Notes: a model not told the origin generated them from the sequence alone. 64,000 bases of DNA from Nitrospirota bacterium (GCA_024275315.1 JAJRZK010000027.1:68714-132713); one strand, 5' to 3'. Counted from the stretch's first letter, positions 31,213 through 62,735 are shown. Translations and numbers: made by a program.

Positions 31213-31215
31213 CTT

Positions 31216-31998
31216 TTACCCTCTCCACTTTCCCGATTCGAGCGATCTGAAGGTGAAAAACAGGAATGTGAATATAAATGTCAGGTAATAGACCACGTCC
31301 CTGGTATCTACACTTCCCCTGGCGAACTGGTAAAAGTGTTTGAGTATGGAAAGATAGTTCAGCGTCTGCGACAAGGTGTCCGTTTTCTCCTCCACCGCCC
31401 ATCCGATAACCCAAAACACCAGTAGCGCGCCAAAGCTCAACGCGGCGGAGATGATCTGGTTTTCGGTCAGGGTGGAGACAAAAATCCCCAACGCCAGAAA
31501 AGAAGCCCCCAGAAGGACAAGGCCCAGGTAGCCCGCCAATATAGCCTGCCAATGGGGGGTGGAGTACCAGTACACGAACCCGAGGTAAGACGCGGTCGAG
31601 GCGAGCATGATGAAAAACACCGATAGCGCCGCCAGGTACTTGCCCATGACCAGATCGAAATCCCGAATGGGCCATGTGAACAGAAGCTCCGCCGATCCGT
31701 TTTTTCTCTCCTCGGAAAAAAGACGCATCGTGATGAGAGGCATCATGAGAAGCATCACGATCGACAGGTTGCCAAATAACTGGCCCATCACCATATCTGT
31801 CATGTCCAGCTCCTGGGGGCCGGTGACCTGCGCAGTCCGGCTCAATTCAAAACTGACAAGGCCATACAGGCTCATGGCGGAATAGAAGAAAAACCCGGAT
31901 ATCAGCACAAACATGCAGATCACCGCGTAAGCCACTGGCGAATGGAAATACGATTTGAATTCGCGTTTCATCACTACCAGAAGATTGCCCATCATGTC
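31216..31998 (-). CDS. ABC-2 type permease (GldF/NosY-like)
   Basis: Six TM helices. The start MMGNLLVVMKREF at 31998/31995 overlaps the ATPase stop (ATGA). The track ORF start at 32124 would overlap the ATPase gene. Confidence 0.75.
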   Translation of the reverse strand, partial: DMMGNLLVVMKREFKSYFHSPVAYAVICMFVLISGFFFYSAMSLYGLVSFELSRTAQVTGPQELDMTDMVMGQLFGNLSIVMLLMMPLITMRLFSEERKNGSAELLFTWPIRDFDLVMGKYLAALSVFFIMLASTASYLGFVYWYSTPHWQAILAGYLGLVLLGASFLALGIFVSTLTENQIISAALSFGALLVFWVIGWAVEEKTDTLSQTLNYLSILKHFYQFARGSVDTRDVVYYLTFIFTFLFFTFRSLESGKWRG

Positions 31999-32996
31999 AC
32001 ATCCCCCGGATCTGTCCCGGGCAAAGATTTCTCCTCTTCCGATGTCCCGGCGTCTTGCGTGATAATTTTTATATAGATATCCTCCAGCGACACCGACCCC
32101 TTGCCAAGCTCGATCAGGTCCCACCCTTTCGAAGCCACCAGCCGGACAAGATCGCCCCTGGGGTTTGTATCGTCTTTGTGATGTATCTCTATAGTCATGG
32201 TTCGGGTTTGGTCCCTGGTTCCGGGCCGATCCTGCCTGACCAATACCTCCGTAACTCCGGGCAGGAGCCTCAGCTCGCTTCTGATCTGCTCCCCGGGACC
32301 GTCCAGCGTCACCAGAACCGTGTTTACCGCATCACCGGAAAGCCGATCCATGGCGTTGGAATCGACCAGTTTACCCTTGTTTATAATCATCGCCCTTGTG
32401 CACACCATCTGCACCTCGGACAGCAGGTGGCTCGACAGTATCACGGTGCGCCTTCCTCCCAGGTCTTTTATAAGCGAGCGCATCTCCATTATCTGTTTTG
32501 GATCCAGGCCTATGGTGGGCTCGTCCAGGATGAGAACCTGCGGGTCGCCGATCAACGCCTGCGCCAACCCGACCCTCTGCCGAAGCCCCTTGGACAGCGC
32601 TCCTATAAGCGAATTCCGGCGGGATATGACGCCGGTCAACTCCATGATGTCACCAACTTTTCTCATCCGGTCCGAACGGGCCGCGCATCCCTTAAGTTCG
32701 GCGACGTAATCGATATATTCCCATACCCTCATGTCCGGATACAGGGGTGTCGATTCCGGCAGATACCCGACACGTTTTTTCACCTCCATCGCGTGGGTGA
32801 ACACGTTGAACCCCGCGACAGTGGCCGTTCCCGCCGTAGGTGGCATGAAACCGGCGAGAATACGCATCGTGGATGTTTTACCGGCCCCGTTCGGACCCAG
32901 GAAACCGCAGATTTCCCCAGGTTCGATGGAAAATGACAGGTTGTCAACGGCGGTATGGTCGCCGTATTTCTTAGTAAGACTGTCCGCCTGGATCAA
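31992..32996 (-). CDS. ABC transporter ATP-binding protein (GldA-like)
   Basis: Walker A GPNGAGKTS, ABC signature LSKGLRQRV, Walker B ILILDEPT. Confidence 0.88.
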   Translation of the reverse strand: MIQADSLTKKYGDHTAVDNLSFSIEPGEICGFLGPNGAGKTSTMRILAGFMPPTAGTATVAGFNVFTHAMEVKKRVGYLPESTPLYPDMRVWEYIDYVAELKGCAARSDRMRKVGDIMELTGVISRRNSLIGALSKGLRQRVGLAQALIGDPQVLILDEPTIGLDPKQIMEMRSLIKDLGGRRTVILSSHLLSEVQMVCTRAMIINKGKLVDSNAMDRLSGDAVNTVLVTLDGPGEQIRSELRLLPGVTEVLVRQDRPGTRDQTRTMTIEIHHKDDTNPRGDLVRLVASKGWDLIELGKGSVSLEDIYIKIITQDAGTSEEEKSLPGTDPGDVT

Positions 32997-34662: not shown

Positions 34663-37600
34663 TCAATAGTTTTCAAATACGCGTTCTTTGCCGCGGTATT
34701 GCTCCGCCTGGTACATGAACGCCTCTAGACGTGTCTGAGAGTTAGTCTCCTCGACACCGTCATAGTCAAGGTTGAGCCAGGGTATGTTGTCATGGTCTTC
34801 CCGAAGTTTTTTCGAGATAGCGGCGACTATAGTGCCTGGCATACAGGAAAAAGGCATAATGTTTACAACGCCATCCAAACCCTTCCGCGCAAAATCCACC
34901 GCTTTGCCCAGGCTCAATATCGCCTCGCCCTCGATCGTGTCGCGCATGTAAGGGCTTGCGTATTCGAGCACCTGGCCGATCATCGGATCTTCGGCGCTCG
35001 CCAGGGTCTCCTTGAATGGCTCCAGCAGTTTTCGCTCATCCTTTTTCTGGATTCTATCCTGCATGTAACCTTTAATGAGGTCAAGATATTTTTTGTCGAT
35101 CCTGGACTTGTTAATATACCGGTCCGTGCAGTACATTATCCATTCCCCGATAGGCGCAAGCCACACTTTGCCACCCAGATTCTCTATACGCTTTATGATC
35201 TCCTGGTTGCCAAACGAATGGCTCCGCATGAATATTTCGCCGACAACGCCTATGCGCGGCCTGGTTTTTCCATCCACCTGTATAGCCTGAAACCTGTCTT
35301 GTATCTCCCATACGTAATCAAATAACAGCGAGCTGTCTTTTTCCACCAGTTCGGCCGTTTTTTGTAGGCATTGCTCATACACCCTGTCCGTTTCGCCCGG
35401 TCGCAACTCGTGCGGGCGGGTCTCGTGCAACAGCTTCGCGAGAATATCCACCACAACGACACCACGCCAAGCGGACCTGCGAAACCGCATCCCAAAATCC
35501 ACACTGTTACCATAGCCACTGTCCGCGTCTGGAGAAAGGAGCGGAACATTGCCAAACCCCAGCTCGTCTAGAATGATCCTCTGCACCCTTTGATACTGGC
35601 CAAACCGGCAGGGACCCTGGGTGGTGGGCATGAAAAAGGCTGACCTGTCCGGATCGAACCCTGTCTCCCGCGCTTTTTTGATTATGTCTCCGGTGGTGAT
35701 GGCAAACGGGACACATTCCTTGCCGGAGGAGAATTTCAGGCCGATATCCAGGGACTCCCGATCCGACTTGGGCAAAAGCACAGCCGGCACACCGGTTCCC
35801 CGCAGAGCGGCCGCGATAATGTGACCATGGTCGCACATATATGGGAGATAAAGAGTCCTGCAACGACCCTTGACGATATCTCCCCTAACGACCCCGGCGC
35901 CGACGCCGTTCCCGTTGTATCCGCCGGAACCGGCGCCATTGACGCCGGTTTTCCCCAGGATATTCCGGACGACCACGGACGCGGTTTCACAGTTCTCAAG
36001 GCTGTCGAAAAACGCCTCCAGCCTGGTAATCGCCCCGGCGTCGGCTGCGTGCTCGTCTATCTCCAGGCGCAGGCATGGTTTCCCCCCCAGGGCTTGCGTC
36101 AAAATATGCTCGATAAACGAATCCGGTCCGCACTTGAAGCTGTATATAAAAATGGCGTCCAGACGGTTGTTTTTGCCCACCTGCTGCGCGGCGGAGATTA
36201 TCCTTTGGCCCGATCGCCAGTACATGTCCGGATACTTGTCCCAAGCGGGTCCCTCGGCAAGATCGAGAAAATCGATGGGTACAGCAATTTTACCCATCTC
36301 CCGCAGTTTGCGAGGCAGGTCCAGGTTTATCCCGGAATCACAGCCATTGTAGGGTCTGCTTAGTATCACCACAGGCTTTTCCCCACGGTCCTGGGCTTGC
36401 CTGAGAACTTCCCTTCCCCGGTCCCGCATGGACATGTAAAACGCGTCCTGCGCTTTTCTGGCCTTGGCGACGGCTCTTCTTATGTCTTTCAACGGTATCC
36501 CGAACTTGTCGCCCAAAACGGTCTTCAGCTCCCTGGCGACATCCTGGTCACCGCGTTGAAAAAAAATGGAAGGCGCAAGCAAATCCACGCCGGCGCCGGC
36601 GAGGTCTATCGCGGACTGGATGATGTGCGATATCGACTGCACCAGCGGGCACGTGTAACTTTGCACAAACATGCTCTTCACGGAATTCATGGTGATGACG
36701 GATGGGAGAAAAATAAAATCGACACCCTTTTCTATCAGGTCGATTACGTGCCCGTGCATGATCTTTATGGGGAAACACGTCTCCGCCTTTACATGCTGTA
36801 TAGAATCCCGAATCACCGCCGGTGACGTCTTGCCGGACAGCACCACCTCAAACCCCAAATCTTCCAGGAGAGTCTTCCAGAAGGGGAACAGTTCGTAAGA
36901 CATAAGGCTCCTGGGCACACCCACCGCGGCCCTGGTCCCCGATGGCCGTTTTACCTTCGTCGACACGGAACCGAACATCATCTTCTCCCGTTCGACGAAA
37001 AGATCGACGGGACGATCGGCCTTTTTCTTCTTTTTCTTGTCTCCCTCGAACAGCTCGCAACGGGCGCCATAGTAATGTGCGTCCTCGCCTTCAAACTTGA
37101 TCCGGCTGACATTGCACACATTGTCGCAAGCCTTGCACTCGAACGTGGTGACCTTGTATTTCCTGTTCTGCAAGTCAAACCCCAGGAACCTGGAAGGCTC
37201 TGAAGGGCCATCCCGCAAACGCTTTTTCATGGCGATAAGAGCCGCTCCTATCGCTCCTGTTACGTCGTGGTGAGGCGGGACGGTGATTTTCTTCCCGGTG
37301 ACGTTTTGAAAAGCCGCAACCACCGCCCTGTTCCACGCCACCCCTCCCTGGAACAGGATGTTGGAGCCGATCTTCCTGTCTCCCACCACCTTGTTGAGGT
37401 AGTTCGATACAATCGAATAGGCCAGCCCCGCGGCCAGATCCTGCTTGTTCATCCCTTTCTGCTGGTTCGACACCAGGTCCGACTCGATGAAGACCGTGCA
37501 TCTGTCGCCGAATTTGCCCGGCGCTTTCGCATCAAAAGCCGTATTGGCGAAATCCTTTTCGATATCAAGGTCTATCTTCTCCGCCTGCTCCTCGATAAAC

Positions 37601-38964
37601 GACCCGGTGCCCGCGGCGCATACCTTGTTCATTTCAAAATCAACCACGGCGCCTTTGTCGATGGAGACGTATTTGCTGTCCTGCCCGCCGATCTCGAAAA
37701 TCGTATCCACTTCCGGATGAAAATGTATCGCCGCCGTCGCCTGGGCGGTTATTTCATTGCGGACGGTGTCGGCGCCGATAAAGTCGCCGATCATATACCG
37801 GCCCGATCCGGTGGTTCCCACCCCGAGTACGTTGACCTTATCCCCTATTTCCGACCCTATCTCCATCAGGCCCCTGGTGACCGCCTCGATGGGGCGGCTC
37901 CTAGTCCTGATGTATCGTCTCGCGATAACTCTCATGCTCTCGTCGATGGCGACCACGTTTGTGCTCAGCGACCCTATATCCACACCGATAAAACATCCGA
38001 TGTTTTTGTGGCCGTTCAATCTGTTCGTATGTGTGTCATACATCTCGTCATTCATCTCGCCGGTCAGGGGGCTCATGGAGCTTCTGGCGGCGTTGCGCAC
38101 GGCTCGATAGTTCTCAAGCCCACCGGTCCCCTTGAACCTGAAGCCGTTCTGGTTCTCCATGGAAATCAGCGCCGCGCCTATGGCGCCCATTACCGCCCGC
38201 TCCGGCGGGATGAATAACTCCTCTGCCGGCAATTCGAACTGTTCCGCCATGGCCTGCACCACGCCCTGGTTCCAGGAGACCCCACCGAAAAACGCGACTG
38301 GTTTGTTAATCTCCCTGCCCATGCACACGTTGCTCTTGTATGACCTCGCCACCGCGTGGCACAGCCCCGCCACTATATCCCACACCGGAGTTCCGATCTG
38401 TTGCAGGTGGATCATGTCGGATTTTGCGAAGACGGAGCACCGCCCCGCGATCCGCGGCGGGTTCTTGGATTTCAGCGCCAACTGGCCAAACTCGCCTTCT
38501 ATATCCACCCCGATTCGCTTGGCCTGCTGGTCCAGAAAACTGCCTGTGCCGGCGGCGCACAGATTGTTCATGGAAAAATCGGCGAGAACCGTCTTTCCCT
38601 CGACCTCCTTGAACATGAGCATCTTGGAGTCTTCTCCGCCCATCTCTATGAGTGTCCTGATGTTTGGGTACAAAGAGGATACGGCCCTGGAAAATGATAC
38701 GATCTCGTTGGCGAACTCCCCCCCCACCAGAGAAGCGACCAGTTCACCCGCGCTACCGGTGACGCCGATGTTCATGACGCGGGAGCCTTCGGCTTTTCCC
38801 AGCAGTTCGCTAATCGTTTTTACCGTGGCCGGAATAGGCTCGCCATACGATCGTCTGTAGGAATGGGATAAAACAGAGCCACTAGAATCGACAATGGCTC
38901 CTTTAACCGAAACAGAGCCAATATCAAGACCAATCCATACACCACCGGTTTTGTCCAAGCCCAT
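34663..38964 (-). CDS. fused 2x BadF/BadG/BcrA/BcrD-type ATPase (CoA-substrate-specific enzyme activase) + 2-hydroxyacyl-CoA-dehydratase-like domains (1433 aa)
   Basis: Two acetate/sugar-kinase-fold ATPase repeats (IGLDIGSVSVKG... and IGVDIGSLSTNV...), each with cluster-ligand CAAGTGSF motifs, followed by HgdB/HgdC-like dehydratase domains. YjiL/YjiM-type fusion architecture. Confidence 0.85.
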   Translation of the reverse strand: MGLDKTGGVWIGLDIGSVSVKGAIVDSSGSVLSHSYRRSYGEPIPATVKTISELLGKAEGSRVMNIGVTGSAGELVASLVGGEFANEIVSFSRAVSSLYPNIRTLIEMGGEDSKMLMFKEVEGKTVLADFSMNNLCAAGTGSFLDQQAKRIGVDIEGEFGQLALKSKNPPRIAGRCSVFAKSDMIHLQQIGTPVWDIVAGLCHAVARSYKSNVCMGREINKPVAFFGGVSWNQGVVQAMAEQFELPAEELFIPPERAVMGAIGAALISMENQNGFRFKGTGGLENYRAVRNAARSSMSPLTGEMNDEMYDTHTNRLNGHKNIGCFIGVDIGSLSTNVVAIDESMRVIARRYIRTRSRPIEAVTRGLMEIGSEIGDKVNVLGVGTTGSGRYMIGDFIGADTVRNEITAQATAAIHFHPEVDTIFEIGGQDSKYVSIDKGAVVDFEMNKVCAAGTGSFIEEQAEKIDLDIEKDFANTAFDAKAPGKFGDRCTVFIESDLVSNQQKGMNKQDLAAGLAYSIVSNYLNKVVGDRKIGSNILFQGGVAWNRAVVAAFQNVTGKKITVPPHHDVTGAIGAALIAMKKRLRDGPSEPSRFLGFDLQNRKYKVTTFECKACDNVCNVSRIKFEGEDAHYYGARCELFEGDKKKKKKADRPVDLFVEREKMMFGSVSTKVKRPSGTRAAVGVPRSLMSYELFPFWKTLLEDLGFEVVLSGKTSPAVIRDSIQHVKAETCFPIKIMHGHVIDLIEKGVDFIFLPSVITMNSVKSMFVQSYTCPLVQSISHIIQSAIDLAGAGVDLLAPSIFFQRGDQDVARELKTVLGDKFGIPLKDIRRAVAKARKAQDAFYMSMRDRGREVLRQAQDRGEKPVVILSRPYNGCDSGINLDLPRKLREMGKIAVPIDFLDLAEGPAWDKYPDMYWRSGQRIISAAQQVGKNNRLDAIFIYSFKCGPDSFIEHILTQALGGKPCLRLEIDEHAADAGAITRLEAFFDSLENCETASVVVRNILGKTGVNGAGSGGYNGNGVGAGVVRGDIVKGRCRTLYLPYMCDHGHIIAAALRGTGVPAVLLPKSDRESLDIGLKFSSGKECVPFAITTGDIIKKARETGFDPDRSAFFMPTTQGPCRFGQYQRVQRIILDELGFGNVPLLSPDADSGYGNSVDFGMRFRRSAWRGVVVVDILAKLLHETRPHELRPGETDRVYEQCLQKTAELVEKDSSLLFDYVWEIQDRFQAIQVDGKTRPRIGVVGEIFMRSHSFGNQEIIKRIENLGGKVWLAPIGEWIMYCTDRYINKSRIDKKYLDLIKGYMQDRIQKKDERKLLEPFKETLASAEDPMIGQVLEYASPYMRDTIEGEAILSLGKAVDFARKGLDGVVNIMPFSCMPGTIVAAISKKLREDHDNIPWLNLDYDGVEETNSQTRLEAFMYQAEQYRGKERVFENY

Positions 38965-39784: not shown

Positions 39785-41608
39785 GTGACGGAAACATTCA
39801 AACAAGCGCTGGAAAAACGCCTGCTGGTATGTGACGGCGCTTTCGGCGCCATGCTCTATTCCAAGGGTGTGACAATCAACCGGTGCTACGAAGAGCTGAA
39901 CCTGACCCAGCCCGACCTGGTGCGCGAACTCCACCGGGACTATATAAAAGCCGGCGCCGACATTATCGAGGCCAATACTTTCGGCGCCAACAGGTTCAAG
40001 CTCCGCCATTTCGGCCTGGAAGACAAGGTAAAACAGATCAACAGCACCGGGCTGGCGCTGGCGCTGGAGGAGGCGCGGGGTTCCGCGTTTGTCGCCGGGT
40101 CGATCGGCCCGCTGGGGTTGAGTGTGGAGCCATACGGTAAAATCACCATCTCCGAGGCGAGCGACGCTTTTCGCGAGCATGGCGCAGAGCTTGTGGAAAA
40201 CGGGGCGGACCTGATTATATTCGAAACATTCCATGATCTTAACGAGCTCAAGGCCGCCATAAAAGCCATCAGGTCGTTGTCGTCGGACATTCCCATAGTC
40301 GCCCAAATGGCGTTTGAAACCGACGGTAAAACCGTGCATGGCGCCACACCTTTCCAGGTGGTCAATGCGTTGGAGCGTCTGAATATAGACGCGGTCGGGG
40401 CGAACTGTTCCGTTGGTCCCGCCGACATGCTCGACGTGGTAAAAGCCATGGCCTCGTCGACGCGCCTTCCCGTGTTCGCCCAGCCGAACGCCGGCATGCC
40501 CAGGGTTGTGGACGACCGGCTGATATATCTAACCACACCCGAATACCTGCTGACGTATGGCAAACGGTTTATCCGCGCCGGGGCGCGGGTTGTGGGGGGG
40601 TGTTGCGGAACCACCCCTGCGCATACGGCCGCGCTGAAGGGGGCCGTGATGGCGTTGTCCCCTTCCAGGGTCGAGGTGAGCGAGACACCTCAAACAAAAG
40701 GCCGGGAGGAGATAAAGGAAACCCCACGAAAAGATAAAACCCCGATGTCCAAAAAATTGTGCGAGGGGAAATGGGTCCAGTCGGTGGAGCTTCTGCCCCC
40801 GAAAGGCCCGGACGCCACCCGTGTGCTGGGGCACGCGAAAAAGCTCAAGGAAGCCGGGATAGACTGCCTGAACATACCGGACGGTCCCCGGGCGATGGCG
40901 CGGATGAGCCCCATGTCGCTGGCGCTCCTGTTCAAAAACGAAATTGGTGTGGAGCCTATATTGCACTATACCTGCCGCGACAGGAACCTGTTGGGAATGC
41001 AATCGGACATCCTTGGAGCCCACGCTGTTGGTATTAAAAACATCCTTGCAATCACGGGCGACCCGCCGAAACTCGGCAATTATCCCAACGCGACCGCGGT
41101 ATACGACGTGGACGCCATTGGGCTGGTCAAAATGATCCGCAACCTTAACCGTGGGCTGGACATTGTCGGCAATGCGATCAACGGCCAGACGGCGATCCAT
41201 ATTGGTGTGGGAGTAAACCCGGGAGCCTCCAATATAGAGGAAGAGATCAGAAGGTTTGAATTGAAGGTGGAATCCGGGGCGGAGTTTTGCATGACCCAGC
41301 CCATTTTCGAGACAGAGAAGCTTTTCAGTTTTCTGGACAAGATCGAGCGATTCCGCATCCCGGTGCTGGTGGGTATTCTTCCGCTGGCCTCGCTTCGGTC
41401 CGCCGAGTTTCTGCACAACGAAGTCCCCGGAATGCAGGTACCGAAGAAAATTCGTGAAAGCCTGAAACGCGCCGGGGATGATGCTTTGGAAACGGGTGTG
41501 ATGATAGCCCGGGAGGCGTTGGAAGAGGCCAGGGGGCGTGTGCAGGGTGTGTATGTGATGGCGCCGGTGGGAGGCGCCGACACGGCGCTTAGGCTGCTTG
41601 GGGGATAA
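39785..41608 (+). CDS. bifunctional homocysteine S-methyltransferase (MetH N-terminal Hcy-binding domain) / 5,10-methylenetetrahydrofolate reductase
   Basis: Hcy-binding barrel with zinc-ligand Cys (GANCS...GGCCGTTP), a linker, then a MetF TIM-barrel (ILHYTCRDRN, ILAITGDPP). No B12-binding domain. Confidence 0.85.
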   Translation: MTETFKQALEKRLLVCDGAFGAMLYSKGVTINRCYEELNLTQPDLVRELHRDYIKAGADIIEANTFGANRFKLRHFGLEDKVKQINSTGLALALEEARGSAFVAGSIGPLGLSVEPYGKITISEASDAFREHGAELVENGADLIIFETFHDLNELKAAIKAIRSLSSDIPIVAQMAFETDGKTVHGATPFQVVNALERLNIDAVGANCSVGPADMLDVVKAMASSTRLPVFAQPNAGMPRVVDDRLIYLTTPEYLLTYGKRFIRAGARVVGGCCGTTPAHTAALKGAVMALSPSRVEVSETPQTKGREEIKETPRKDKTPMSKKLCEGKWVQSVELLPPKGPDATRVLGHAKKLKEAGIDCLNIPDGPRAMARMSPMSLALLFKNEIGVEPILHYTCRDRNLLGMQSDILGAHAVGIKNILAITGDPPKLGNYPNATAVYDVDAIGLVKMIRNLNRGLDIVGNAINGQTAIHIGVGVNPGASNIEEEIRRFELKVESGAEFCMTQPIFETEKLFSFLDKIERFRIPVLVGILPLASLRSAEFLHNEVPGMQVPKKIRESLKRAGDDALETGVMIAREALEEARGRVQGVYVMAPVGGADTALRLLGG

Positions 41609-44641: not shown

Positions 44642-45580
44642 TCAGATATGCGCGACATCCTCGGCGGATCGTTTCTTGACGTGTGTGGCGGCGGCCACCT
44701 TTATCTTGCTGGACAGAATCCTGCGGACCGTATCCAACCCCTGGTACAGCTTCAGCTCCTCCTTGTCCACCACGTCCACGGCGCCTATTTCATTCGCCCG
44801 GAGCCTCATTTTGCTCCCTTTCTGAGCGACGGAGCTGACTATGATCACAGGCTTGGGAAAATGGATCATCAGTTTTTTCAGAAACGAGACACCATCGAGC
44901 TTGGGCATGATAATGTCCAGCGTTATCACATCCGGGTTGAGCTCTAATATTTTCGACCGGGCGTCGTACGCGTCCTCGGCCTGGCCGACAACATGGATTT
45001 CATCATCCGTCGAAAGGGCTTTTTGAATGATGCCACGAACGGTGTAGGAATCGTCCACGATTAGCACCTGGATTTTGCGGCCCGCCAGGTCTTTTTTCTT
45101 CGCCTCAAGCTGTAATGTAAGCTCCGATTTCTGTATCATCCGAACTTCCACTTCGCCCGTATGGTTATCGAAGAAAATCTTCATGCCAGAGTCGCCCCCG
45201 GTCCTGTTTCTCTTTATGGCGATCCCGTGAGATTTGAGCAACTCCAGGGCTATGGCTATGTTTCGCTGGCCTATCTCGAACCCCGTGTTCAGGTGCCCGA
45301 CAACGGCGCCTCCTCCATAAACGCTCGCCTCCAGGTTTCTTTTGTTCGGGTCAACCTTGAGCATGGAGGAGATGAGCTTGTTGGTGGAATAATCACCGTA
45401 TTTACCCACCATGCTCTGGTTCCCGCCCGTGGGGAGCATAAAATGGTTCATGCCGCCGAATTTCCCGCTTTTGTTATAAAGACACACCGCGACACACGAC
45501 CCGAGCAGGGTCGATATGATGGCAGGTTGTTTGGTCAAGGCGATTTCACCCGGAAGAACAAACAGCTTCTTTTTTTCCAT
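44642..45580 (-). CDS. CheD (chemoreceptor glutamine deamidase) fused to a C-terminal CheB-type receiver domain
   Basis: N-terminus matches CheD with catalytic Cys/His context (LLGSCVAVCLY, MNHFMLP). C-terminus has KIQVLIVDDS...DVITLDIIMPKLDG...VIIVSS, closely matching the CheB N-terminal REC domain. Confidence 0.75.
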   Translation of the reverse strand: MEKKKLFVLPGEIALTKQPAIISTLLGSCVAVCLYNKSGKFGGMNHFMLPTGGNQSMVGKYGDYSTNKLISSMLKVDPNKRNLEASVYGGGAVVGHLNTGFEIGQRNIAIALELLKSHGIAIKRNRTGGDSGMKIFFDNHTGEVEVRMIQKSELTLQLEAKKKDLAGRKIQVLIVDDSYTVRGIIQKALSTDDEIHVVGQAEDAYDARSKILELNPDVITLDIIMPKLDGVSFLKKLMIHFPKPVIIVSSVAQKGSKMRLRANEIGAVDVVDKEELKLYQGLDTVRRILSSKIKVAAATHVKKRSAEDVAHI

Positions 45581-45681
45581 TGTCTATATTTCCCGTATTT
45601 ATGATAAACAGATTTCAGCGATATGTTTATTGTATCCCAAGGACGAATCGCTCCGCTCCGGGCCGAATAACGGTTTTTGTA

Positions 45682-47841
45682 TCATTGTCCCAGAAACTGC
45701 TTGAGTATCCCTTCCACGCTCAATATCAGCGCCATCCTTGTTCCGTCCAGTATCGACACCCCCTCGAATGCACTGGGCTCTTTTGTCTGGACGGTAAGTT
45801 GCTTGTATACTATCTGGCGCTGGCCCATCATCTCGTCCACCACGAGACAGACCGTCATGCCACGCGATTCGATCAATACGCATATCGCATCCCATATATT
45901 TTCGTACCTCGGTTTCGTCTTGAAAAGAGCGTGAAGCCGGACGACCGGGTATATCTTGCCCCATCTCTGGACGACCTCGCCCTTGCCTTCCACGGTGCTT
46001 ACATCCTCGCGTTTGGCCCTGAAAGACTCTCGCACGCTCTCTGCGGGAATCAGAAACATGCTCGACCCCACCGCCAGAGTCAACCCCAGCTTGATCCTGG
46101 TTGTGTACGCCAGCGGCGTTACTATCTTCACCCGCAACCCTTCGCCGGGGGAGTTGTCCAACAGCAGTGTCCCACCCATTTCATGAACACCCGCCGACAG
46201 CACGTCCATCCCCACTCCCCTGCCGGAGGTTTCGGTGATCGATTGCGCGGTGGAAAAGCCCGGTTTTAGTATCAGGTTCAACGCTTCACTATCAGACATC
46301 TTCGCGGCCGCGTCTTGCGACACAAACCCCTTGTCTACGGCCACCTGGCGGATTTTGGCGGTATCCACACCACTTCCGTTGTCAGATATTTCTATTATCA
46401 GGTTCGCCTTGTCCGAACTGACATCGATGCAGATGCGCCCCTCCTCCTCTTTACCCGCCGCGGCGCGCTCTTTTGGTGTTTCTATTCCATGATCGGCGCT
46501 GTTTCTCACCAGATGCACAAGGATGGTTTCAATTTTTTCCAGCAGGCTTTTGTCAATCTCCGTGTCGCCACCTCTACACTCGAGCCGGATATTTTTCTTC
46601 CTTTCCCTGGCGATATTTCGCACCAGCCTGGGCAACTTGGCCAATGCCCTTTCCACGGGGGTTTTCCTGATGACGTACAGGCTTTTCTGGAGCTGGTTCG
46701 AAAGTTCACGAAACGACTGGTTGGTGTTCTTGAAATTAAGGGCGATCCCATTGAGCTCGTTATCTTCAGGCCTGCGCTGGATATAGTTGAACAGCTCGCT
46801 TAGCGTAATCAGCTCTCCCACATAGTCGATAAAAACATCCAGAAGCGATTCCTCCACCCGGACAAAACCCACCCTCCGCTCTCCCCTCCTTTGCTGGTAC
46901 CCCTTGCCATCTTGCGGCTCGGCGGCCGAGGGGGCTTTTGTCCGCTCCGGTTTTTGTTGTGTAAGTCCCTTGGCGTATTCATCCAGAACGGCGGATATGG
47001 AGCCGGCGAGCATCTCGTCGATCCCGATGGCGTCCTGGTAAAACATTTCGAAATCTTCCTTCAGAGTGTTAAGCTCGCCCAAGGGCCCGGTCACTTCCGC
47101 CTTGACGTGTTTTTCTATGAGCGCATCAAGAGCCTTGGTGAAAGTCGCATACGCGGTTTCGTCCTGGGAGCTGTTTTCCATGGCGTTGTTTATCAGAGCG
47201 CGCAAATCCAGATATTCCCGGGTAACGTCGATGTCGCCATACATCCATTTTGTTCCATCTTCCATGGATGTTTTTCTTTTGTCTTTCAACAAAAACGGGG
47301 CGTTTTTGGATATAATCTCGAACATTTCAGACACCGGACTATCTTCATATTGTCCATCATCGTAACTGGAGAAAAACACCAGCAGGCTCTTCCTCAAATT
47401 TTCAAGCTGGTTTTCCTCTGAGCCCTCTCCCAGGCTGGCGTCTATCTGCGACAAATAGGCCGCTTCATCTTCGGTAAGAGTTACATCAACTCCCTTGTTG
47501 GCGTTCAGACGGTTGAAGATATTTTTCAGGTAATCCGCGCCTTCAAGAATGAATTTCACTATCTCCCTGTCGATCTCTATTTCCTTGCTGCGGATAAGGT
47601 CAAGATAGTTTTCGAGTGTATGACAAAATGTCTGCACGTTTGTGAAATTGAAAAACGAGCTGTTTCCCTTCAGGGAATGGACAGCGCGGAAAATGCCGTG
47701 GATATGGCTTTCATCGGTCAAATCGGCGTCGAGCCCCTGGGAATGCTCCTCTATCTCCTGGAGCATCTCATCGGCCTCTTCCAAAAACGACTGGAAAAGA
47801 CTCTCCTCTATTTCCCCGCTACTCTGGTCTGTCATAAGCAC
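45682..47841 (-). CDS. cheA: chemotaxis histidine kinase CheA
   Basis: HPt (IFRAVHSLKGNS), dimerization and HATPase domains (HLVRNSADHGIE, DNGSGV, GRGVGMD), C-terminal CheW-like domain. A ~250-aa insert sits between HPt and the dimerization domain. Confidence 0.9.
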   Translation of the reverse strand: MLMTDQSSGEIEESLFQSFLEEADEMLQEIEEHSQGLDADLTDESHIHGIFRAVHSLKGNSSFFNFTNVQTFCHTLENYLDLIRSKEIEIDREIVKFILEGADYLKNIFNRLNANKGVDVTLTEDEAAYLSQIDASLGEGSEENQLENLRKSLLVFFSSYDDGQYEDSPVSEMFEIISKNAPFLLKDKRKTSMEDGTKWMYGDIDVTREYLDLRALINNAMENSSQDETAYATFTKALDALIEKHVKAEVTGPLGELNTLKEDFEMFYQDAIGIDEMLAGSISAVLDEYAKGLTQQKPERTKAPSAAEPQDGKGYQQRRGERRVGFVRVEESLLDVFIDYVGELITLSELFNYIQRRPEDNELNGIALNFKNTNQSFRELSNQLQKSLYVIRKTPVERALAKLPRLVRNIARERKKNIRLECRGGDTEIDKSLLEKIETILVHLVRNSADHGIETPKERAAAGKEEEGRICIDVSSDKANLIIEISDNGSGVDTAKIRQVAVDKGFVSQDAAAKMSDSEALNLILKPGFSTAQSITETSGRGVGMDVLSAGVHEMGGTLLLDNSPGEGLRVKIVTPLAYTTRIKLGLTLAVGSSMFLIPAESVRESFRAKREDVSTVEGKGEVVQRWGKIYPVVRLHALFKTKPRYENIWDAICVLIESRGMTVCLVVDEMMGQRQIVYKQLTVQTKEPSAFEGVSILDGTRMALILSVEGILKQFLGQ

Positions 47842-48008
47842 AAAGTCTCACAAACACCAGCAGTAAGATTGCGCATTATATATTTTGCGACCAATGATGT
47901 ATAATCATGTCCAGGCGTATTTTGATTATTTTAACACATATGTTTCAACAATTTTGAAATAATTACTTGTATTTCCTTGATTTTAACCCGATTTTCCTCT
48001 AGAGCGCC

Positions 48009-56031: not shown

Positions 56032-57228
56032 ATGGTAACCGAGCTTGCTGAAGCTCCCGGGACTGAAACGGTTTGCGCGCCCGATTTTTCGATTTTCGTA
56101 GGTAAAAGTCCTGCGTTGCAATCGGTGCTTGACACCATCTCCAACCTGTTGGATAACGACTCGACAGTCCTGGTTTTAGGCGAGAGCGGCACCGGCAAGG
56201 AACTGATCGCAAGAGCCATACATTACAATTCAAACCGAAACCAATACCCCCTGGTGACCGTCAACTGCGGCGCGATACCCGAGGAATTGCTGGAATCGGA
56301 GCTGTTCGGTCATGAAAAGGGAGCGTTTACAGGCGCCATCCGCACCCGAATCGGCAAGTTCGAGCTGGCCGACAAGGGGACAATATTCCTTGACGAGATC
56401 GGAGACATGAGCCCCACGCTTCAGATAAAGCTGTTGCGGGTGCTCCAGGAGCATGAATTCGATCGAGTGGGCGGAAACAGGACCATGAAAGTATCTGTCC
56501 GCATCATAGCGGCGACAAACCAGAACCTGGAAAAAGCCATAGAGGAAGGCAGGTTCCGTGAAGACCTCTATTACCGGCTCAACGTCATCCCGATAGAAGT
56601 CCCAGCGCTGCGTTTCCGGGGCGATGATATCTCCCTGCTGGTGACGCATTTCATAAAAAACTTCAACGCGTTGAAAAACAGAAACATCTCCGGGATGAGC
56701 CAGGAGGCGATCAACCTGCTTCGGGCGTATACATGGCCAGGCAACATACGCGAACTCGAACACATGATCGAACGGCTTGTCGTGCTCAAGGCGAGCGGTG
56801 TCATAGAAAAGCAGGATCTGCCGCCTAAACTTCAAAATCTCGAATTACCACCGGACGACCAGCTATCCAAAGACATGCTTCTCGTTGGCGATCCGGATGA
56901 ATTGGCAGAAGAGCGTCTGTCCGCCCCGGCGATCAAAATCGCGCAACCTCCAAACGGGTCACCCGACAATGTCGGCGCCCGGAGCAACATCATTGAAAAC
57001 CATCCGGGGCGGACGGACGCTGATTTTCAGATTGAAGACTCGCCCACACTTCCGGAAGAAGGGATAAACCTCAAAGAAGCGGTAGACCGTTATGAAACCG
57101 CCCTGATCCTCGCCGCGCTCGACAGATGCGGCTGGGTGAAAAACAAGGCGGCCAACCTGCTGGGGCTTAACCGCACCACCCTGGTGGAAAAACTGAAAAA
57201 GAAAAAGCTGGTCAGAACAGAGGGATAA
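56032..57228 (+). CDS. sigma-54-dependent transcriptional activator lacking any N-terminal regulatory domain (AAA+ + long linker + Fis-type HTH)
   Basis: Walker [31 protein letters not shown]-finger. C-terminal HTH ([18 protein letters not shown]). Only ~30 aa precede the AAA+ domain. Confidence 0.85.
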
Positions 57229-57536
57229 AGCCGGGCTCGCTGACAAAATCTTTTGTGCCGCCAACCAACGCCCCGCAGGTGTCGCGAATCTCGCTTCTTT
57301 GCACATACCGAGCTTTTTGCGCGGCCCTCCCTAACCTTCATTATGGAATCCGCCGATACCTCAAATGACAGCCCCAAGCCCGACCAGCCCTGTTATGGTT
57401 GCGGGCGGAGGGACACTTTTGCATGGCGGCCGGCAGGTTATGAAGGCTATTGAATGATTTACAACATGGTCTGGCCGACTTTATAATAAGGTTTTCTTGA
57501 AACGCAACTTATAACAGAAAATATCAGGACCTTTTC

Positions 57537-58916
57537 ATGGGCGATCATATCGAAACCATAGCGCTTGTCGCGGATAAGTTCATGGTGGATATGAAAATAG
57601 AGGAGCAGCTCAAAAAGGAGGGATTTAACGCCGTCATGGTCAAAAAAGCGCCTGATCTTATAAAGGCGCTGGTAAAGCTGAGCCCCGCGATCATAATCAT
57701 CGACCTGGATCACCAAAACCAGGACAATCCCCTCGCCGTAATTTCCGCCATAAAAAAAGAAGCCCAACTCAAGGAATCCGAGGTGTTCATATATACCGAA
57801 GGAATCGATGTCAGAACTGAAGTGGCCCTGAGAAAGCTAAAGGTGCAATCCTATTTCACCAAATCGAAAAACACGGAACTATTGATAAATGGAGTGCGGA
57901 ACCATTTTTCATGGGACGAAATGACGCAGGAGTATAACCCGTGGGAAGACGAGGAGGAAAACGATGACGATTACATCTATGATTTGAGAGAAGAAGAGCA
58001 AATCATAGAAAAACAGCTGGTAAAACGTCCCCGCCATCGCCCGCCGGACCGGCCGTCCCGGCCAGCGGCGACTGATGGAGCCCCCACCGCGACCCCGGCA
58101 CAGCAACGTCGTCCCGCGCCTCCACCGCAAGAGGCCGCGCCTCCACCGCAAGAGGCCGCGCCTCCAGCGCGGGAAGAACCAGCCCCGGCGGCCAAGACGC
58201 CATCCGATATCGAGGAATCATCCATAAATCTTCCGGGAATGCTCCCTGAAGATCAAAAGGAAAGCGACACCAACGAGTTCATGGAAATGCTGACCGATTT
58301 TCAAAATGGCATCAGCAAAAAGCTCGACGATGTGGAAAAAGCGCCTGGACACGGACAGGCCGCCGAGGTTGAGAACCAGATAATACAAGACGGTCCGTTC
58401 AAGGCCGAAAACCTTACATCGGAAGGGGAAGCGCTATTGACCCAGCCGGAAAATTTCACCAACACCGACGAGTTCCAGGACCTTTTGAACGAGTTTCACG
58501 CCGGGTTGGACAACAAACTTGCAAACATGGAAAAAGGTCATGAATCTCACTACAACCTGGGCATCTCGTATTTTGAAATGGGGCTGTTCGAGCAGGCCCT
58601 GGAGCAGTTCGAAAAATGCGTTGGAACCCAGGAATACAAGCTGAGAAGCATGAACATGATAGGCGCCATTCACAGAAAGCTAGGCGCCTATGATAAAGCC
58701 GTGGAGTCTTTTAAGGCATGCCACATGAACGCGCCTGATGAATATTCCAAGCTCAGCTTCCGTTATGAAATCGCGGACACTTTTATGACCCAGGGGAAAA
58801 TGCGCGACGCTTACAAAATGTTCGCCACAGTCTACAAGGTGGACAAGGGGTTTAAGGACACCAGAGCCAAGTTGATAAAAATCAAATCGGCTCTTGAAGC
58901 GAACAACCAACCCTGA
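57537..58916 (+). CDS. pseudo-receiver-like N-domain / Pro-rich linker / C-terminal TPR protein (candidate MglA partner)
   Basis: N-terminal REC-like fold with degenerate acidic pocket (ALVADKFM, IIIIDLD). Pro/Ala-rich linker including tandem APPPQEA. C-terminal TPR-like repeats (YNLGISYFEMGLFEQALEQFEKC...). The stop overlaps the mglA-like start (TGATG). Confidence 0.7.
   Translation: MGDHIETIALVADKFMVDMKIEEQLKKEGFNAVMVKKAPDLIKALVKLSPAIIIIDLDHQNQDNPLAVISAIKKEAQLKESEVFIYTEGIDVRTEVALRKLKVQSYFTKSKNTELLINGVRNHFSWDEMTQEYNPWEDEEENDDDYIYDLREEEQIIEKQLVKRPRHRPPDRPSRPAATDGAPTATPAQQRRPAPPPQEAAPPPQEAAPPAREEPAPAAKTPSDIEESSINLPGMLPEDQKESDTNEFMEMLTDFQNGISKKLDDVEKAPGHGQAAEVENQIIQDGPFKAENLTSEGEALLTQPENFTNTDEFQDLLNEFHAGLDNKLANMEKGHESHYNLGISYFEMGLFEQALEQFEKCVGTQEYKLRSMNMIGAIHRKLGAYDKAVESFKACHMNAPDEYSKLSFRYEIADTFMTQGKMRDAYKMFATVYKVDKGFKDTRAKLIKIKSALEANNQP
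58116..58166 (+). repeat. 21-nt tandem repeat (gcgcctccaccgcaagaggcc x ~2.4) encoding APPPQEA repeats in the Pro-rich linker
   Basis: Direct tandem copies at 58116-58136 and 58137-58157, plus a partial third copy. Confidence 0.6.
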
Positions 58917-59890
58917 TGGTAGTCTTCAATTACGCCAATCGTGAATTGACGGCGAAAATCGTCTATTACGGCCCGGGGCTGTGCGGGAAAACCACGAACC
59001 TTGAATTCATCCACCAGAAAATCTCCCCCGGCAAAAGAGGCCAGCTTCTAAGCCTGGCCACCGAAACCGACAGGACCCTGTTTTTCGACCTGCTACCGGT
59101 GGATCTGGGTACCATATCGGGGTTCCACGTCCGGCTACAGCTTTTTACCGTGCCCGGCCAGACGTATTATAACTCCACACGCAAACTGGTGTTGCGCGGC
59201 GCTGACGGTGTCGTATTTGTGGCCGACAGCAGGCGAGATCTGCTTGACGCCAATATCGAAAGCCTTCATAACCTTTTTGAAAACCTGAAGGAAAACAACA
59301 TCGATCCCGACTCCCTGGCGTTGGTGTTGCAATATAACAAACAGGATCTAAAACCGCTTATACCGGTGGAGGAATTGAACAAAGCCCTTAACCCCAAAGG
59401 AGCGCCATGGACAAAAGCCGTGGCGCTACGGGGTGTAGGCGTCATAGAAACTTTCAAGCTCATCTCCAAGGATGTGATCACACTGCTGAAAAACAAAGTC
59501 GGCGCGGTCCAGGTCCCGCCGGGTCCAGCCACGCCTCCGCAAAAGGCGCCACCGGCGGATATCGATGGCCAGCAGATAAAAATCAAATCGGAAAAAACCC
59601 ATATTCCGAAAGGCTCCAGGGCTACCAGGGAACAGATCCGCAAAGAAACCAGCCTTTCGGAACATGGGATAAAGTCACCGGCCCAAACAATCGAAACATG
59701 GCTAAGCTTGATGGAGGAGGGTAAAATAGACATGAGCGCAAAAGAAACACTGCCCCTGATCAACCATATAAAGAAAAACCTCGTGGGCATCATAGAAAGC
59801 AACAAGAAAACAAACGTCCAGCATGAAGACCTGTTCCGCCTTCTCGACAAGCTGGCGATGACGCTGAAAAAAGAGCCTGGTAACAAGTAA
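58916..59890 (+). CDS. mglA: MglA/SofG-family Ras-like GTPase with ~130-aa C-terminal extension
   Basis: First ~195 aa align closely with Myxococcus MglA (KIVYYGPGLCGKTTNL P-loop, TETDRTLFFD switch I with intrinsic Arg, TVPGQ, NKQD, GVGV). A Pro-rich linker and a ~90-aa helical C-domain follow. Confidence 0.8.
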   Translation: MVVFNYANRELTAKIVYYGPGLCGKTTNLEFIHQKISPGKRGQLLSLATETDRTLFFDLLPVDLGTISGFHVRLQLFTVPGQTYYNSTRKLVLRGADGVVFVADSRRDLLDANIESLHNLFENLKENNIDPDSLALVLQYNKQDLKPLIPVEELNKALNPKGAPWTKAVALRGVGVIETFKLISKDVITLLKNKVGAVQVPPGPATPPQKAPPADIDGQQIKIKSEKTHIPKGSRATREQIRKETSLSEHGIKSPAQTIETWLSLMEEGKIDMSAKETLPLINHIKKNLVGIIESNKKTNVQHEDLFRLLDKLAMTLKKEPGNK

Positions 59891-60101
59891 TAATATCCAT
59901 CCGGAACTCGGCCGGGGCTCGCCGCTGTCAACAATTTGACACAAGCGCCCATACCCGTCGCCCTGACCTGAGATATAACTCCATTAATATTAAATTGTTA
60001 ACTCGATCGCACGTCTTTCCGGAGTCGCGGCGCAAAACCGGCCACTCCGGCACGGGACTTGCTCACTTTACAGTCAGGAACAGTTGACTTTGGACAGGTA
60101 A

Positions 60102-62723
60102 GTGAGAATAGACAGCTTGGCGTTTAAAACGGTCTCCGCGCTTGTTGCGGTGGGGTTTTTCACTTTTGGCTTTCAGTTTGCCATAGGAGCCCCCGCCCGC
60201 ATCATCGATTTGAGCCTGAGCGAGCAGGAGGATCACAGCACACTCTCGATCACGACAGACATCACCCCCGACTTGGCTATGTCTTTCGACACGAAGACAT
60301 CCACCCTGACCGCCAGGCTTGTTTCAGTGACAGGGGAGAACATACTGGACGATCTCAAATACTCTGACAAGCTCATAAAATCGGTTTCGGCCGTAAAGGA
60401 AGAAAAAACCGGTGACGTGCTGATAAAGATAGCGTTCCACAAGCCAAACATCACCTTTAACCGCGCAAGCCTCCCCGGCGAGCCCGGGATCACGCTAAAC
60501 TTCCGCTCGACAGAAAAACCATTGAGAATAACCGGCGTCACCCCGGAAAAACTGATGGCCGCCATTGCCCGGCCTGCCGGGGAAAAACCTTCCAAAGAAA
60601 AAACCGTCGAACCCACCGCCCCGAAAACCGAACAACCCGCCGGCGAAACTATGGAAAAAAAGCCGGCCTCCATCGAGCCCGTAGCGGCAAAAGCGCCGGT
60701 GAAAAAGCCGGTCCGGTCAGAGCGGGAACTAGCCGAGTTGGCCGAACTGGACAAGGAATACAAGAAAATCGAGAACAATTCAGGCCGTGAACAGTATATC
60801 GAGTTGATGAAAAAGATACAGAAAGGAGAATTCGCAGAAGCCGTCGACGACGCCAACAGGTTCATGAAATATTTTCCGCTGTCGATTTACAGGGAACGGG
60901 TGTTGTACAGCAAGGCCGAAGCGCTGTACCGGATCGCAAAAAAGGACATGACCACGTTCAACACCGCCATCACAGCCGCAAACGAGGCTATCGCCTCGGC
61001 CCCGGACTCGTACCTGGCGCAACCGGCGCTGATGCACAAGGCGAGCCTGCTGGCCGACCAGGAGCTTTACACCGAAGCGCTGGCGGAATACGGCGGATTG
61101 CTTCGCCTCGCCCCGAAAGGGAAATATATTGTCACAGCCATGCTTTCCAGGGCGCAGATTTATATGAAGCAGGAGAAATTTCAGAAAGCGTACAACGAAC
61201 TGGAAAAAATCCTGATCCTTTTTCCGGCGCACAGGAAAGTGCGCGACGCAAAATATCTCATAGCAGAATCGCATTATCACAGGGGAAACTATAAGATCGC
61301 GGGAACCATATTTAACGAAGCCCTGAAACAATGGCCGACATACCCTAAAACCCACCCGGCCACATATATCAGAATCGCAGAAACGAACTATCGCCTGGGC
61401 AAAAAAAAACAGGCCATTGAAGATTGGTATTCGATCGTCAACCTCTTTCCCAAATCGTTTGAAGCGAGAAAATCGATGCTGTGGATCGGGGACACTCTTG
61501 TGGACATGAACAAGAAGCTCGACGCGGCCAAGATATTCGAGCGAACCGCGCGGCGTTATCCCAAGAACGACGAAGCTGTCATGGCCAGTATGAGACTGGC
61601 CACCTTGGGAGCCGAAAACCCGAAACTGTTGAAGCACAGCGAGATTTTCGATTACCACGCTTTTGAGCGTCCTTTTGAAACTTTCAATGAAATAATAAAG
61701 CGTTATCCCGACAAGCAGATAGGCCAGGACGCCCTCGTGCGCAAGGGCAAGGCGTTTTCCGACATCAAAAGATCCCTCTCGGCCATAATGGCGTTCAAAG
61801 AGCTCCTGAGGACATATCCGGGCTATCGCATGTCCGAAGAGGTGTTCGGGCTCGTAAGGAGCAACTTCCTGGAAATGATCAACACATATTACGAACAGGA
61901 CGGCTTTTTTATCGTGCTGATGACATATTACAACAACTTCGACCCCTTTCTGCGTGGAATAGAAAATCCCGAAATCCTGGTAAAAATAGCCGACAGCTAC
62001 TCGCATATGACACTGTACGACAGGGCCATAGAGTATTTCAGGCTCGCCAACAAGTTTGATCCGGACAAAAAACTGCTACCCAAAACGGCTTTCAACATCG
62101 CCATGATAACGCTGAAAAAGAAAAACTACGAAGAAGCGAAATCCATGTTGCGCCTTTACCTGAGGCAGTTCCCCCGATCCTCATACACCACGTCGGCCCG
62201 TCACCTGCTCGGTGACGCCTTTTATAAAACAGGTGAAGCGACGCAGGCCGTCACGGAATGGCGCATGGCCGTGGAAACAAACCCGGGACATCCCCGCACC
62301 TCGCGATCCCTGTACAATATGGGGCTGGTATACAAGGGCAAAAAGCAATACGCAATGGCCATAGACTCCTTTAACCGCGCCATAGACACTTTCTCGCCGA
62401 CCGTGAATACCGGAGAAGACCCGATCCACATTAAAAACAGCGTATATCTCGTCGCCGAAACCTATTATCTGGACCGAGACTTTCCCAACGCCATCCGGGA
62501 GGCCAACGCGGCGAAACGAAGATATAATGACGATAAACGCAATATCTGGATGGATTACCTGATATCATCCAGCCTGGAGCGGATCAACAAAGATGAGCAA
62601 GCCATAGCCAGGTTGAAAGACATGTCTGAACAGGACAAGGACCTTGCGGTGGCCAAAGTGGCCATGGCCAAGCTCAAAGCCTTCGAATGGAGAAGGAAAA
62701 ACGAGAGTCTTTTCGTAGACTAG
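60102..62723 (+). CDS. secreted multi-TPR protein with a possible N-terminal AMIN-like beta domain
   Basis: Signal peptide. A ~100-aa beta-rich segment (RIIDLSL...VLIKIAF...ITLNFRS) resembling AMIN domains. Lys/Glu/Pro-rich linker, then >=12 TPR-like repeats. GTG (60102) or TTG (60117) start. Confidence 0.7.
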   Translation: MRIDSLAFKTVSALVAVGFFTFGFQFAIGAPARIIDLSLSEQEDHSTLSITTDITPDLAMSFDTKTSTLTARLVSVTGENILDDLKYSDKLIKSVSAVKEEKTGDVLIKIAFHKPNITFNRASLPGEPGITLNFRSTEKPLRITGVTPEKLMAAIARPAGEKPSKEKTVEPTAPKTEQPAGETMEKKPASIEPVAAKAPVKKPVRSERELAELAELDKEYKKIENNSGREQYIELMKKIQKGEFAEAVDDANRFMKYFPLSIYRERVLYSKAEALYRIAKKDMTTFNTAITAANEAIASAPDSYLAQPALMHKASLLADQELYTEALAEYGGLLRLAPKGKYIVTAMLSRAQIYMKQEKFQKAYNELEKILILFPAHRKVRDAKYLIAESHYHRGNYKIAGTIFNEALKQWPTYPKTHPATYIRIAETNYRLGKKKQAIEDWYSIVNLFPKSFEARKSMLWIGDTLVDMNKKLDAAKIFERTARRYPKNDEAVMASMRLATLGAENPKLLKHSEIFDYHAFERPFETFNEIIKRYPDKQIGQDALVRKGKAFSDIKRSLSAIMAFKELLRTYPGYRMSEEVFGLVRSNFLEMINTYYEQDGFFIVLMTYYNNFDPFLRGIENPEILVKIADSYSHMTLYDRAIEYFRLANKFDPDKKLLPKTAFNIAMITLKKKNYEEAKSMLRLYLRQFPRSSYTTSARHLLGDAFYKTGEATQAVTEWRMAVETNPGHPRTSRSLYNMGLVYKGKKQYAMAIDSFNRAIDTFSPTVNTGEDPIHIKNSVYLVAETYYLDRDFPNAIREANAAKRRYNDDKRNIWMDYLISSSLERINKDEQAIARLKDMSEQDKDLAVAKVAMAKLKAFEWRRKNESLFVD

Positions 62724-62735
62724 CCGTATTCCGGA

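Follow-up and report, generated by a model that had tools for sequence, protein, structure and literature searches.

Can CheD, a chemoreceptor-modifying enzyme, be regulated by phosphorylation from the chemosensory kinase CheA? The question is raised by a pair of genes in 64,000 nucleotides of DNA from a Nitrospirota bacterium (GCA_024275315.1 JAJRZK010000027.1:68714-132713), which we call the window and whose positions are counted from its first letter. Between 44,642 and 47,841, a cheA gene is followed, 101 nt downstream and in the same orientation, by a gene for a 312-amino-acid (aa) protein in which a CheD domain is fused to a CheB-type receiver; we call this gene cheD-REC and its product CheD-REC. 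In Bacillus subtilis and Thermotoga maritima, CheD acts as a receptor deamidase, and the T. maritima enzyme is reported to be an esterase as well. A physical interaction between CheD and CheB has been found in Halobacterium salinarum (PMC3579733); in Pseudomonas aeruginosa, the CheD of the Che2 system modulates the methylation of several receptors (PMC10107281). For the window protein, we infer, at a probability of roughly 0.6, a CheB-like receptor deamidase/esterase under the control of phosphorylation, in which CheD alone provides the catalytic output; phosphorylation control is the most economical reading.

Domains and integrity of the fusion protein

Pfam recovers two domains in the 312-aa protein, both well above cutoff: CheD (PF03975) at aa 48-147 (E 5.4e-21, 75.2 bits against a cutoff of 25, spanning profile positions 1-107 of 108) and Response_reg (PF00072) at aa 172-274 (E 6e-19, 68.7 bits against 30.2). 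In the CheD part, which is 35% identical to T. maritima CheD (PDB 2f9z, chain C), Thr24, Cys29 and His46 lie in register with that protein, in GSCVAV and HxMLP contexts, and we take them to be the equivalents of its Thr21, Cys27 and His44. By Foldseek, the AlphaFold model matches 2f9z_C with an E value of 3e-14, a target-normalised TM score of 0.86 and a root-mean-square deviation of 2.0 Å over 148 columns. The Pfam match and the triad alignment bear out the original prediction, made from this DNA alone, that an intact CheD core with its Cys/His catalytic context occupies the N-terminus. With known CheDs the protein shares the full fold, the conserved triad and a PF03975 score well over cutoff; it differs from them in that they are stand-alone proteins of about 160 aa, the B. 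subtilis enzyme being regulated by CheC and phosphorylated CheY (CheY-P) and not by a receiver of its own, whereas no cheC lies near cheD-REC. All NCBIfam CheD equivalog models score under their cutoffs (the best, PRK13487, at 126 bits against 223), so that CheD-REC is not an equivalog of stand-alone CheD.

The receiver is of the CheB type, as had been predicted from its motifs. Its best NCBIfam match is CheB (PRK00742, model positions 2-140, 1.4e-40), and its top PDB sequence matches are the CheB entries 6ymz (residues 8-146) and 1a2o (residues 3-135), with any CheY far behind. Identity to CheB residues 3-146, linker included, is about 50%, Asp222 aligns to D56 of CheB, and the modelled receiver matches that of T. 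maritima CheB (3t8y) at a target-normalised Foldseek TM score of about 0.9. The quintet D176, D177, D222, S249 and K273 is invariant in a 25-sequence alignment of the family, in which the inter-domain linker and the helix that follows the receiver are also strongly conserved. CheD-REC thus resembles CheB in its receiver, with the phospho-acceptor Asp, the DD pair, Ser and Lys, and in being encoded with cheA, and the logic presumed for both is that of a receptor-modifying enzyme under CheA control. The differences are as plain: homology to CheB runs through the receiver-esterase linker and ends where the esterase domain would start, the 312-aa protein has no Pfam match to CheB_methylest (PF01339) and no Ser-His-Asp triad, the whole-protein CheB cutoff of NCBIfam is missed (139.6 bits against 293), and the Cys-His-Thr enzyme CheD precedes the receiver, where the enzyme domain of CheB follows it. 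Lacking the esterase domain that defines a CheB, CheD-REC is not one. The earlier description of an enzyme-first order in which the methylesterase is replaced by the deamidase stands as to the order and the missing esterase; as the protein belongs to a wider set of CheD-CheB fusions, some of them with an inactivated esterase, "replaced" is better put as a protein of CheD-CheB type without the esterase domain.

Might this protein be an artefact, a cheD and a truncated cheB joined by a frameshift or an assembly error, or a decaying pseudogene? The genes cheD and cheB are very often neighbours only a few bases apart (as at our loci L012-L087), so that an accidental fusion is conceivable in principle. 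The open reading frame (ORF), however, is single and continuous, and its stop codon lies 5 nt from that of the convergent CCA-adding-enzyme gene, which leaves no room downstream for an esterase remnant. Both the length and the junction recur in more than 120 independent clusters: KSELTxQLEAKKKDLAGRKI, where CheD meets the receiver, is kept at the protein level in orthologues of 49-95% identity and 312 +/- 5 aa, and catalytic and phospho-acceptor residues are invariant. Conservation in the 25-sequence alignment extends to the catalytic triad, the junction, the C-terminal helix and the receiver quintet, and it excludes a frameshift artefact, which the original prediction had named as a possible refutation; we give the artefact explanation practically no chance. 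An exact-sequence look-up returned no identical database record for the window protein.

The last residues of the family are also conserved in the 25-sequence alignment, with an acidic/hydrophobic pattern, ...(E/D)(V/I/L)xx(I/L)-COOH (window 44642-44680), which might be a docking motif.

The two-domain family and its tri-domain relatives

CheD-REC is a real and sizeable conserved family, not a one-off. A word-indexed search for further such fusions in public sequences gave at least 120 clusters at the 90% identity level; 120 of the 120 best matches are full-length CheD plus Response_reg proteins of 301-326 aa and 49-95% identity. At the 50% identity level, about 39 representatives stand among the top 150 hits of the family searches. 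Thr24, Cys29, His46 and the phospho-acceptor Asp222 are invariant in 39 of 39 two-domain representatives. The named carriers are mostly metagenome-assembled genomes (MAGs) of Nitrospinota/Nitrospinae, together with MAGs labelled Nitrospirota, Omnitrophota and Pseudomonadota and hydrothermal-vent metagenomes; by this distribution of its orthologues, the window would probably be placed in Nitrospinota. Existing annotations of these orthologues are generic ("response regulator", "CheD" or "CheB"), and no paper naming a CheD-receiver or CheD-CheB fusion was found in the full-text literature searched, the coverage of which leaves out most subscription journals; "cheBD", where it occurs, is shorthand for an operon and not a fusion. 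As far as the searched literature goes, the architecture is therefore undescribed, yet it is abundant in databases: the predictor's remark that it was not recognised as described agrees with the literature searched, while any suggestion of a one-off yields to the more than 120 clusters already annotated in general terms.

An exhaustive HMMER search of 1.84 billion representatives also returned many proteins of about 500-545 aa that align across the whole CheD-REC query (residues ~4-303, 35-41% identity). By Pfam these are tri-domain proteins, CheD plus Response_reg plus CheB_methylest (for example P0142, P0144, P0152 and P0188); the searched literature yielded no paper on them. When 71 of them were aligned to Salmonella CheB (with consistent GASTGG, QHMP and GNDG contexts), the active triad Ser164/His190/Asp286 proved to be kept in about 40-45 clusters (P0188 and P0162 among them). 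In about 20-22 (P0142-P0161) the esterase is dead: Ser164 has become Asn (GGNxG) and His190 is lost (Ser, Thr or other), while the CheB_methylest fold is retained at some 97-101 Pfam bits, against about 208 in the active forms. None of the 20 dead-esterase representatives departs from the CheD triad or from the phospho-acceptor Asp. The constancy of these residues here, as in the two-domain proteins, indicates that selection keeps CheD chemistry and phosphorylation when esterase chemistry goes. Tri-domain proteins thus share with CheD-REC the N-terminal CheD, the CheB-type receiver, the CheD triad and the phospho-Asp; they differ in keeping a C-terminal esterase domain, active or inactivated, and CheD-REC is one domain short of them.

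How did the two-domain form arise? CheD-REC belongs with the CheD-CheB fusions, whose source is the very common gene order cheR-cheD-cheB, and it looks like such a fusion cut off at the receiver-esterase linker of CheB. Retention of this linker suggests that the two-domain form may have lost an esterase domain. Neighbour-joining trees built from the region common to these proteins recover the dead-esterase clade in 197 of 200 bootstraps; the two-domain proteins fall together as a single split of the full tree, with support of only 34/200, and a sister relation between them and the dead-esterase group gains only 10/200. Most matches in a scan of species-representative genomes are merely adjacent cheR-cheD-cheB genes (L012-L087), and the only true two-domain genes obtained from the genome and metagenome scans with the family alignment are those of L008-L011 and L088-L090; the patterns conserved in the family are those of the receiver, and ordinary neighbouring cheD and cheB genes therefore swamp these scans.

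Other CheD fusions also occur: a CheD-CheB protein with an active esterase in a Steroidobacter MAG (L077, 9818-11782) and a CheR-CheD fusion in a "Ca. Eisenbacteria" MAG (L083, 8363-10543). CheD seems prone to fusing with its operon neighbours.

Partner kinase, genomic contexts and proposed function

The partner CheA matches NCBIfam CheA (4e-96), and the N, G1 and G2 boxes are recognisable in its translation. Its length is probably 717 aa, from an ATG two codons after the GTG, as called for the 92%-identical orthologue of L001, and it is 38-92% identical over its full length to the CheAs that adjoin CheD-REC in L001, L002, L007 and L009. The P3 domain scores 19 bits with PF02895, under the cutoff of 23; the region aligns to P3 of other CheAs. 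Pfam scans of the neighbouring proteins and a phmmer sweep with che seeds over all ORFs of at least 70 aa found no MCP, CheW, CheR, CheB, CheY, CheC or CheX in the 64-kb window. The original prediction of a cheA with its own CheW domain and no other che gene adjacent is upheld by this sweep; the CheW domain is the standard P5 of any CheA and nothing special. CheA was also considered as the carrier of a receptor-mimic substrate site for CheD, and was set aside on finding no receptor-like [ASTG]xx[EQ][EQ]xx[ASTG] site in it.

A CheA, or a CheA-derived Hpt/HATPase protein, adjoins the fusion in 14 of 15 distinct two-domain contexts (the window, L001, L002, L003/L004, L005, L006, L007, L008, L009, L011, L088, L089, L090 and L169): it lies immediately upstream in 13 and about 1.4 kb downstream in L008, and is missing only from L010, where cheD-REC is an orphan among housekeeping genes. 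An upstream CheA with no other chemosensory gene within 10 kb is found in the window, in L001, which is syntenic with it, and in L002, L007, L009, L088 and L089, which have different neighbours; L005, L090 and L011 add receiver or kinase genes, and L169 has CheR and a 312-aa HATPase-only protein. In L003/L004 (labelled Omnitrophota) and L006 the fusion sits in a complete cluster with MCP, CheW, CheA, CheR, canonical CheD, canonical CheB and CheY, to which L003/L004 adds CheX. Directly upstream of it, these clusters have one more protein derived from CheA: in L003 (8463-9995) an Hpt-HATPase that lacks P5, in L006 (8873-9838) an Hpt-CheW that lacks the kinase core. The dead-esterase tri-domain protein of L168 is likewise placed behind an Hpt-CheW protein (8943-10004), as the two-domain form is in L006, in a cluster with MCP, CheW and CheR and a genuine CheB downstream; the active tri-domain protein of L170 fills the cheD-cheB slot of a W-MCP-A-R cluster. 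In L006, L168 and L003, the truncated CheA derivatives stand in addition to a full CheA of the same cluster, which suggests a dedicated phosphorelay branch.

Two further observations concern the kinases of these loci. The CheA of L008 (12389-14515; Nitrospinota MAG JAOUMU010000046.1) is circularly permuted, with the order P3-P4-P5-P1-P2 (dimerisation, HATPase, CheW, Hpt, P2). Proteins of about 290-312 aa with HATPase_c only, or with a weak HisKA plus HATPase_c, lie directly upstream of cheD or cheD-REC in L169 (9050-9988), L012 (9113-9988), L015, L023 and L059, including Bacteroidota-type cheR-X-cheD-cheB clusters.

These contexts make it doubtful that the two genes are a "minimal chemosensory pair", as first described: the fusion occurs in full clusters and as an orphan, and the Nitrospinae core genome is reported to contain flagellar and chemotaxis genes, with motility never seen (PMC5029188). 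For the same reasons, we consider that the pair probably uses receptors from elsewhere in the genome, and that the module is probably an accessory branch acting on them, not a minimal autonomous system. Alternatively, the pair could be a self-contained non-motility pathway, in which CheA would respond to an input other than an MCP array and the substrate that CheD deamidates would not be a chemoreceptor. The pair does stand alone among unrelated genes in several neighbourhoods (the window, L001, L002, L007, L009, L088 and L089), and its CheA has a region of 220 aa where a recognisable P2 would be. This CheA nevertheless has a full P5/CheW-like domain, the known role of which is array coupling, and lacks any receptor-like site; elsewhere the fusion occurs within MCP-containing full clusters, chemotaxis genes are reported from the Nitrospinae core genome, and no alternative substrate candidate is conserved beside the pair. 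We regard a non-motility pathway as quite improbable.

Under the phosphorylation-controlled reading, the two genes would form an operon of a catalytically competent CheA and a CheB-like response regulator with a CheD output in place of the esterase. CheA, in which His55 of P1 is present, would autophosphorylate on that residue; the phosphoryl group would pass to Asp222 of the receiver, as adjacency and the intact residues suggest; and phosphorylation would, by analogy with CheB, alter how the receiver restrains or positions CheD, by way of the conserved helices 153-166 and 282-298. The site formed by Cys29, His46 and Thr24 would then deamidate Gln, and possibly hydrolyse methyl-Glu, on chemoreceptors encoded elsewhere, with kinase-dependent feedback on receptor state as the outcome.

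Several observations weigh against this mechanism. Deamidation is irreversible, and feedback of the adaptation type would need esterase activity; among CheDs, this is documented for the T. maritima enzyme alone. Pfam detects no P2 (CheB/CheY-docking) domain in CheA, and aa 108-326 have no PDB sequence match at E <= 1; P2 is not universal in CheA. The sweep described above leaves the 64-kb window without MCP or CheW. Canonical CheB coexists with the fusion in the full clusters, as does canonical CheD in L003/L006, which implies that the fusion does something else and is not a simple substitute. Lastly, the inter-domain arrangement in the AlphaFold model is not confident (pTM 0.55, against a pLDDT of 88).

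The principal rival, which we rate as unlikely, sees in the receiver chiefly a module for docking or a phosphate sink, comparable to CheV or to sink CheYs: CheD would be constitutive, its catalysis ungated by phosphorylation, and the fusion would tether it to the kinase or the array, or drain phosphoryl groups from a dedicated Hpt branch. The partners are Hpt-bearing or CheA-derived and include truncated proteins, Hpt-CheW in L006 and, with the tri-domain relative, in L168, and Hpt-HATPase in L003, none of which can be a complete kinase; in these clusters canonical CheB, and in L003/L006 canonical CheD, stands alongside. AlphaFold offers no confident packing of the two domains, and where a tri-domain fusion has an active esterase, it is presumably this domain that the receiver regulates, CheD being simply tethered. 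On the other hand, the strong conservation of the inter-domain linker and of the post-receiver helix suggests inter-domain coupling, and the receiver is of the CheB type, the known role of which is allosteric control of an attached enzyme. The strict retention of the CheD triad is compatible with either view. To CheV itself the likeness is one of analogy: both would be phosphorylation-dependent adaptation branches with a chemosensory accessory domain N-terminal to a CheA-phosphorylated receiver. The N-terminal domain of CheD-REC is, however, the enzyme CheD and not a CheW scaffold, with no homology there, and its receiver is CheB-type.

If CheD-REC is phosphorylation-controlled, a bolder proposal can be made, which we offer tentatively as possible and rather doubtful: CheD-REC may be an independent second solution to kinase-controlled adaptation, in which phosphorylation would switch on CheD as a working methylesterase/deamidase and the Ser-His-Asp esterase would have become redundant. 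In this lineage group that esterase is inactivated or absent. In that case the stand-alone Nitrospinota pair of CheA and CheD-REC would serve solely for feedback, as a branch that has a kinase to itself and resets the receptors of arrays encoded elsewhere.

Features of the window and significance of the family

Upstream of the cheA/cheD-REC pair lies a divergent ogt-like gene, and on the other side the convergent gene for the CCA-adding enzyme. Table 1 lists the features of the locus. The spacer between the two genes contains a single weak promoter-like match (45629-45601), which is not significant, and the sigma-70-like match upstream of cheA is one of 6 such sites found by the consensus scan against 3.3 +/- 1.8 expected, which makes it weak evidence.

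Table 1. Features of the cheA/cheD-REC locus, in window coordinates.
Feature	Position	Strand	Basis
cheD-REC, 312-aa CheD + CheB-type receiver fusion	44642..45580, stop codon included	-	ORF, Pfam, NCBIfam, orthologues
CheD domain, aa 1-152	45125..45580	-	aligns to T. maritima CheD 2f9z_C residues 7-152; Foldseek
CheD catalytic codons Cys29, His46; also Thr24	45494-45496 (Cys29); 45443-45445 (His46)	-	alignment to 2f9z_C
Conserved helical inter-domain linker SELTLQLEAKKKDLAG, aa 153-167	45080..45124	-	alignment; predicted helix 153-166, lower pLDDT
CheB-type receiver, aa 168-280; D176, D177, S249, K273; Asp222 codon 44915-44917	44741..45079	-	Pfam, 1a2o/6ymz, Foldseek 3t8y
C-terminal helix and tail, aa 281-312, homologous to CheB receiver-esterase linker	44642..44740	-	CheB alignments; predicted helix 282-298
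cheA / cheD-REC intergenic spacer, 101 nt	45581..45681	.	ORF coordinates
cheA, 719 aa from GTG 47841, probably 717 aa from ATG 47835	45682..47841	-	Pfam, NCBIfam
CheA P1/Hpt, aa 15-107, His55 in HSLKG	47677-47679 (His55 codon)	-	PF01627 8e-15
CheA acidic region, aa 108-326, no domain match		-	Pfam, PDB sequence search
CheA P3, aa 327-387, weak		-	PF02895
CheA P4, aa 437-577		-	PF02518 2e-14
CheA P5/CheW, aa 586-714		-	PF01584 3e-19
Sigma-70-like promoter match TATACA-17-TATAAT (10/12), AT-rich cheA/ogt divergent intergenic region	47875..47903	-	consensus scan only

Elsewhere in the window, a regulatory run on the plus strand (56032-63866) encodes a 398-aa sigma-54 activator that lacks a receiver domain, a 459-aa receiver-TPR protein, a Ras/Arf-like small GTPase of 324 aa, a TPR protein of 873 aa and a HisKA kinase, and may be an MglA-like polarity or motility module. 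The minus strand carries, at 28058-32996, an ABC set resembling the gliding-associated GldA/GldF/GldG (ABC_tran, ABC2_membrane and ABC_transp_aux) with a 650-aa DUF4340 protein, and, at 34663-38964, a gene for a fusion protein of the CoA-enzyme activase type, 1433 aa long, in which two BcrAD_BadFG ATPase modules are combined with DUF2229 and an HGD-D-like end. Close by, at 39785-41608 (plus strand), is encoded a homocysteine S-methyltransferase-MTHFR fusion of 607 aa; L001, the syntenic locus, has conserved counterparts of this protein and of the 1433-aa one.

Of the enzymes that modify receptors, CheD is understood least, in its esterase activity, its physical link to CheB and its role outside Bacillus. 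CheD placed on a CheB-type switch beside a dedicated CheA offers a simple two-protein system for asking whether it can be a regulated adaptation enzyme, and the relatives in which CheD is kept and the esterase killed point to such a role. The CheD-CheB fusions, for their part, are "Rosetta-stone" evidence that the two enzymes cooperate on receptors. Among Nitrospinota, which are major nitrite oxidisers of the sea and in which motility has never been observed, the family is common, so that what their chemosensory genes do is also an ecological question. CheD-REC is no new kind of system; it offers a clean and testable way into the function of CheD and its cooperation with CheB.

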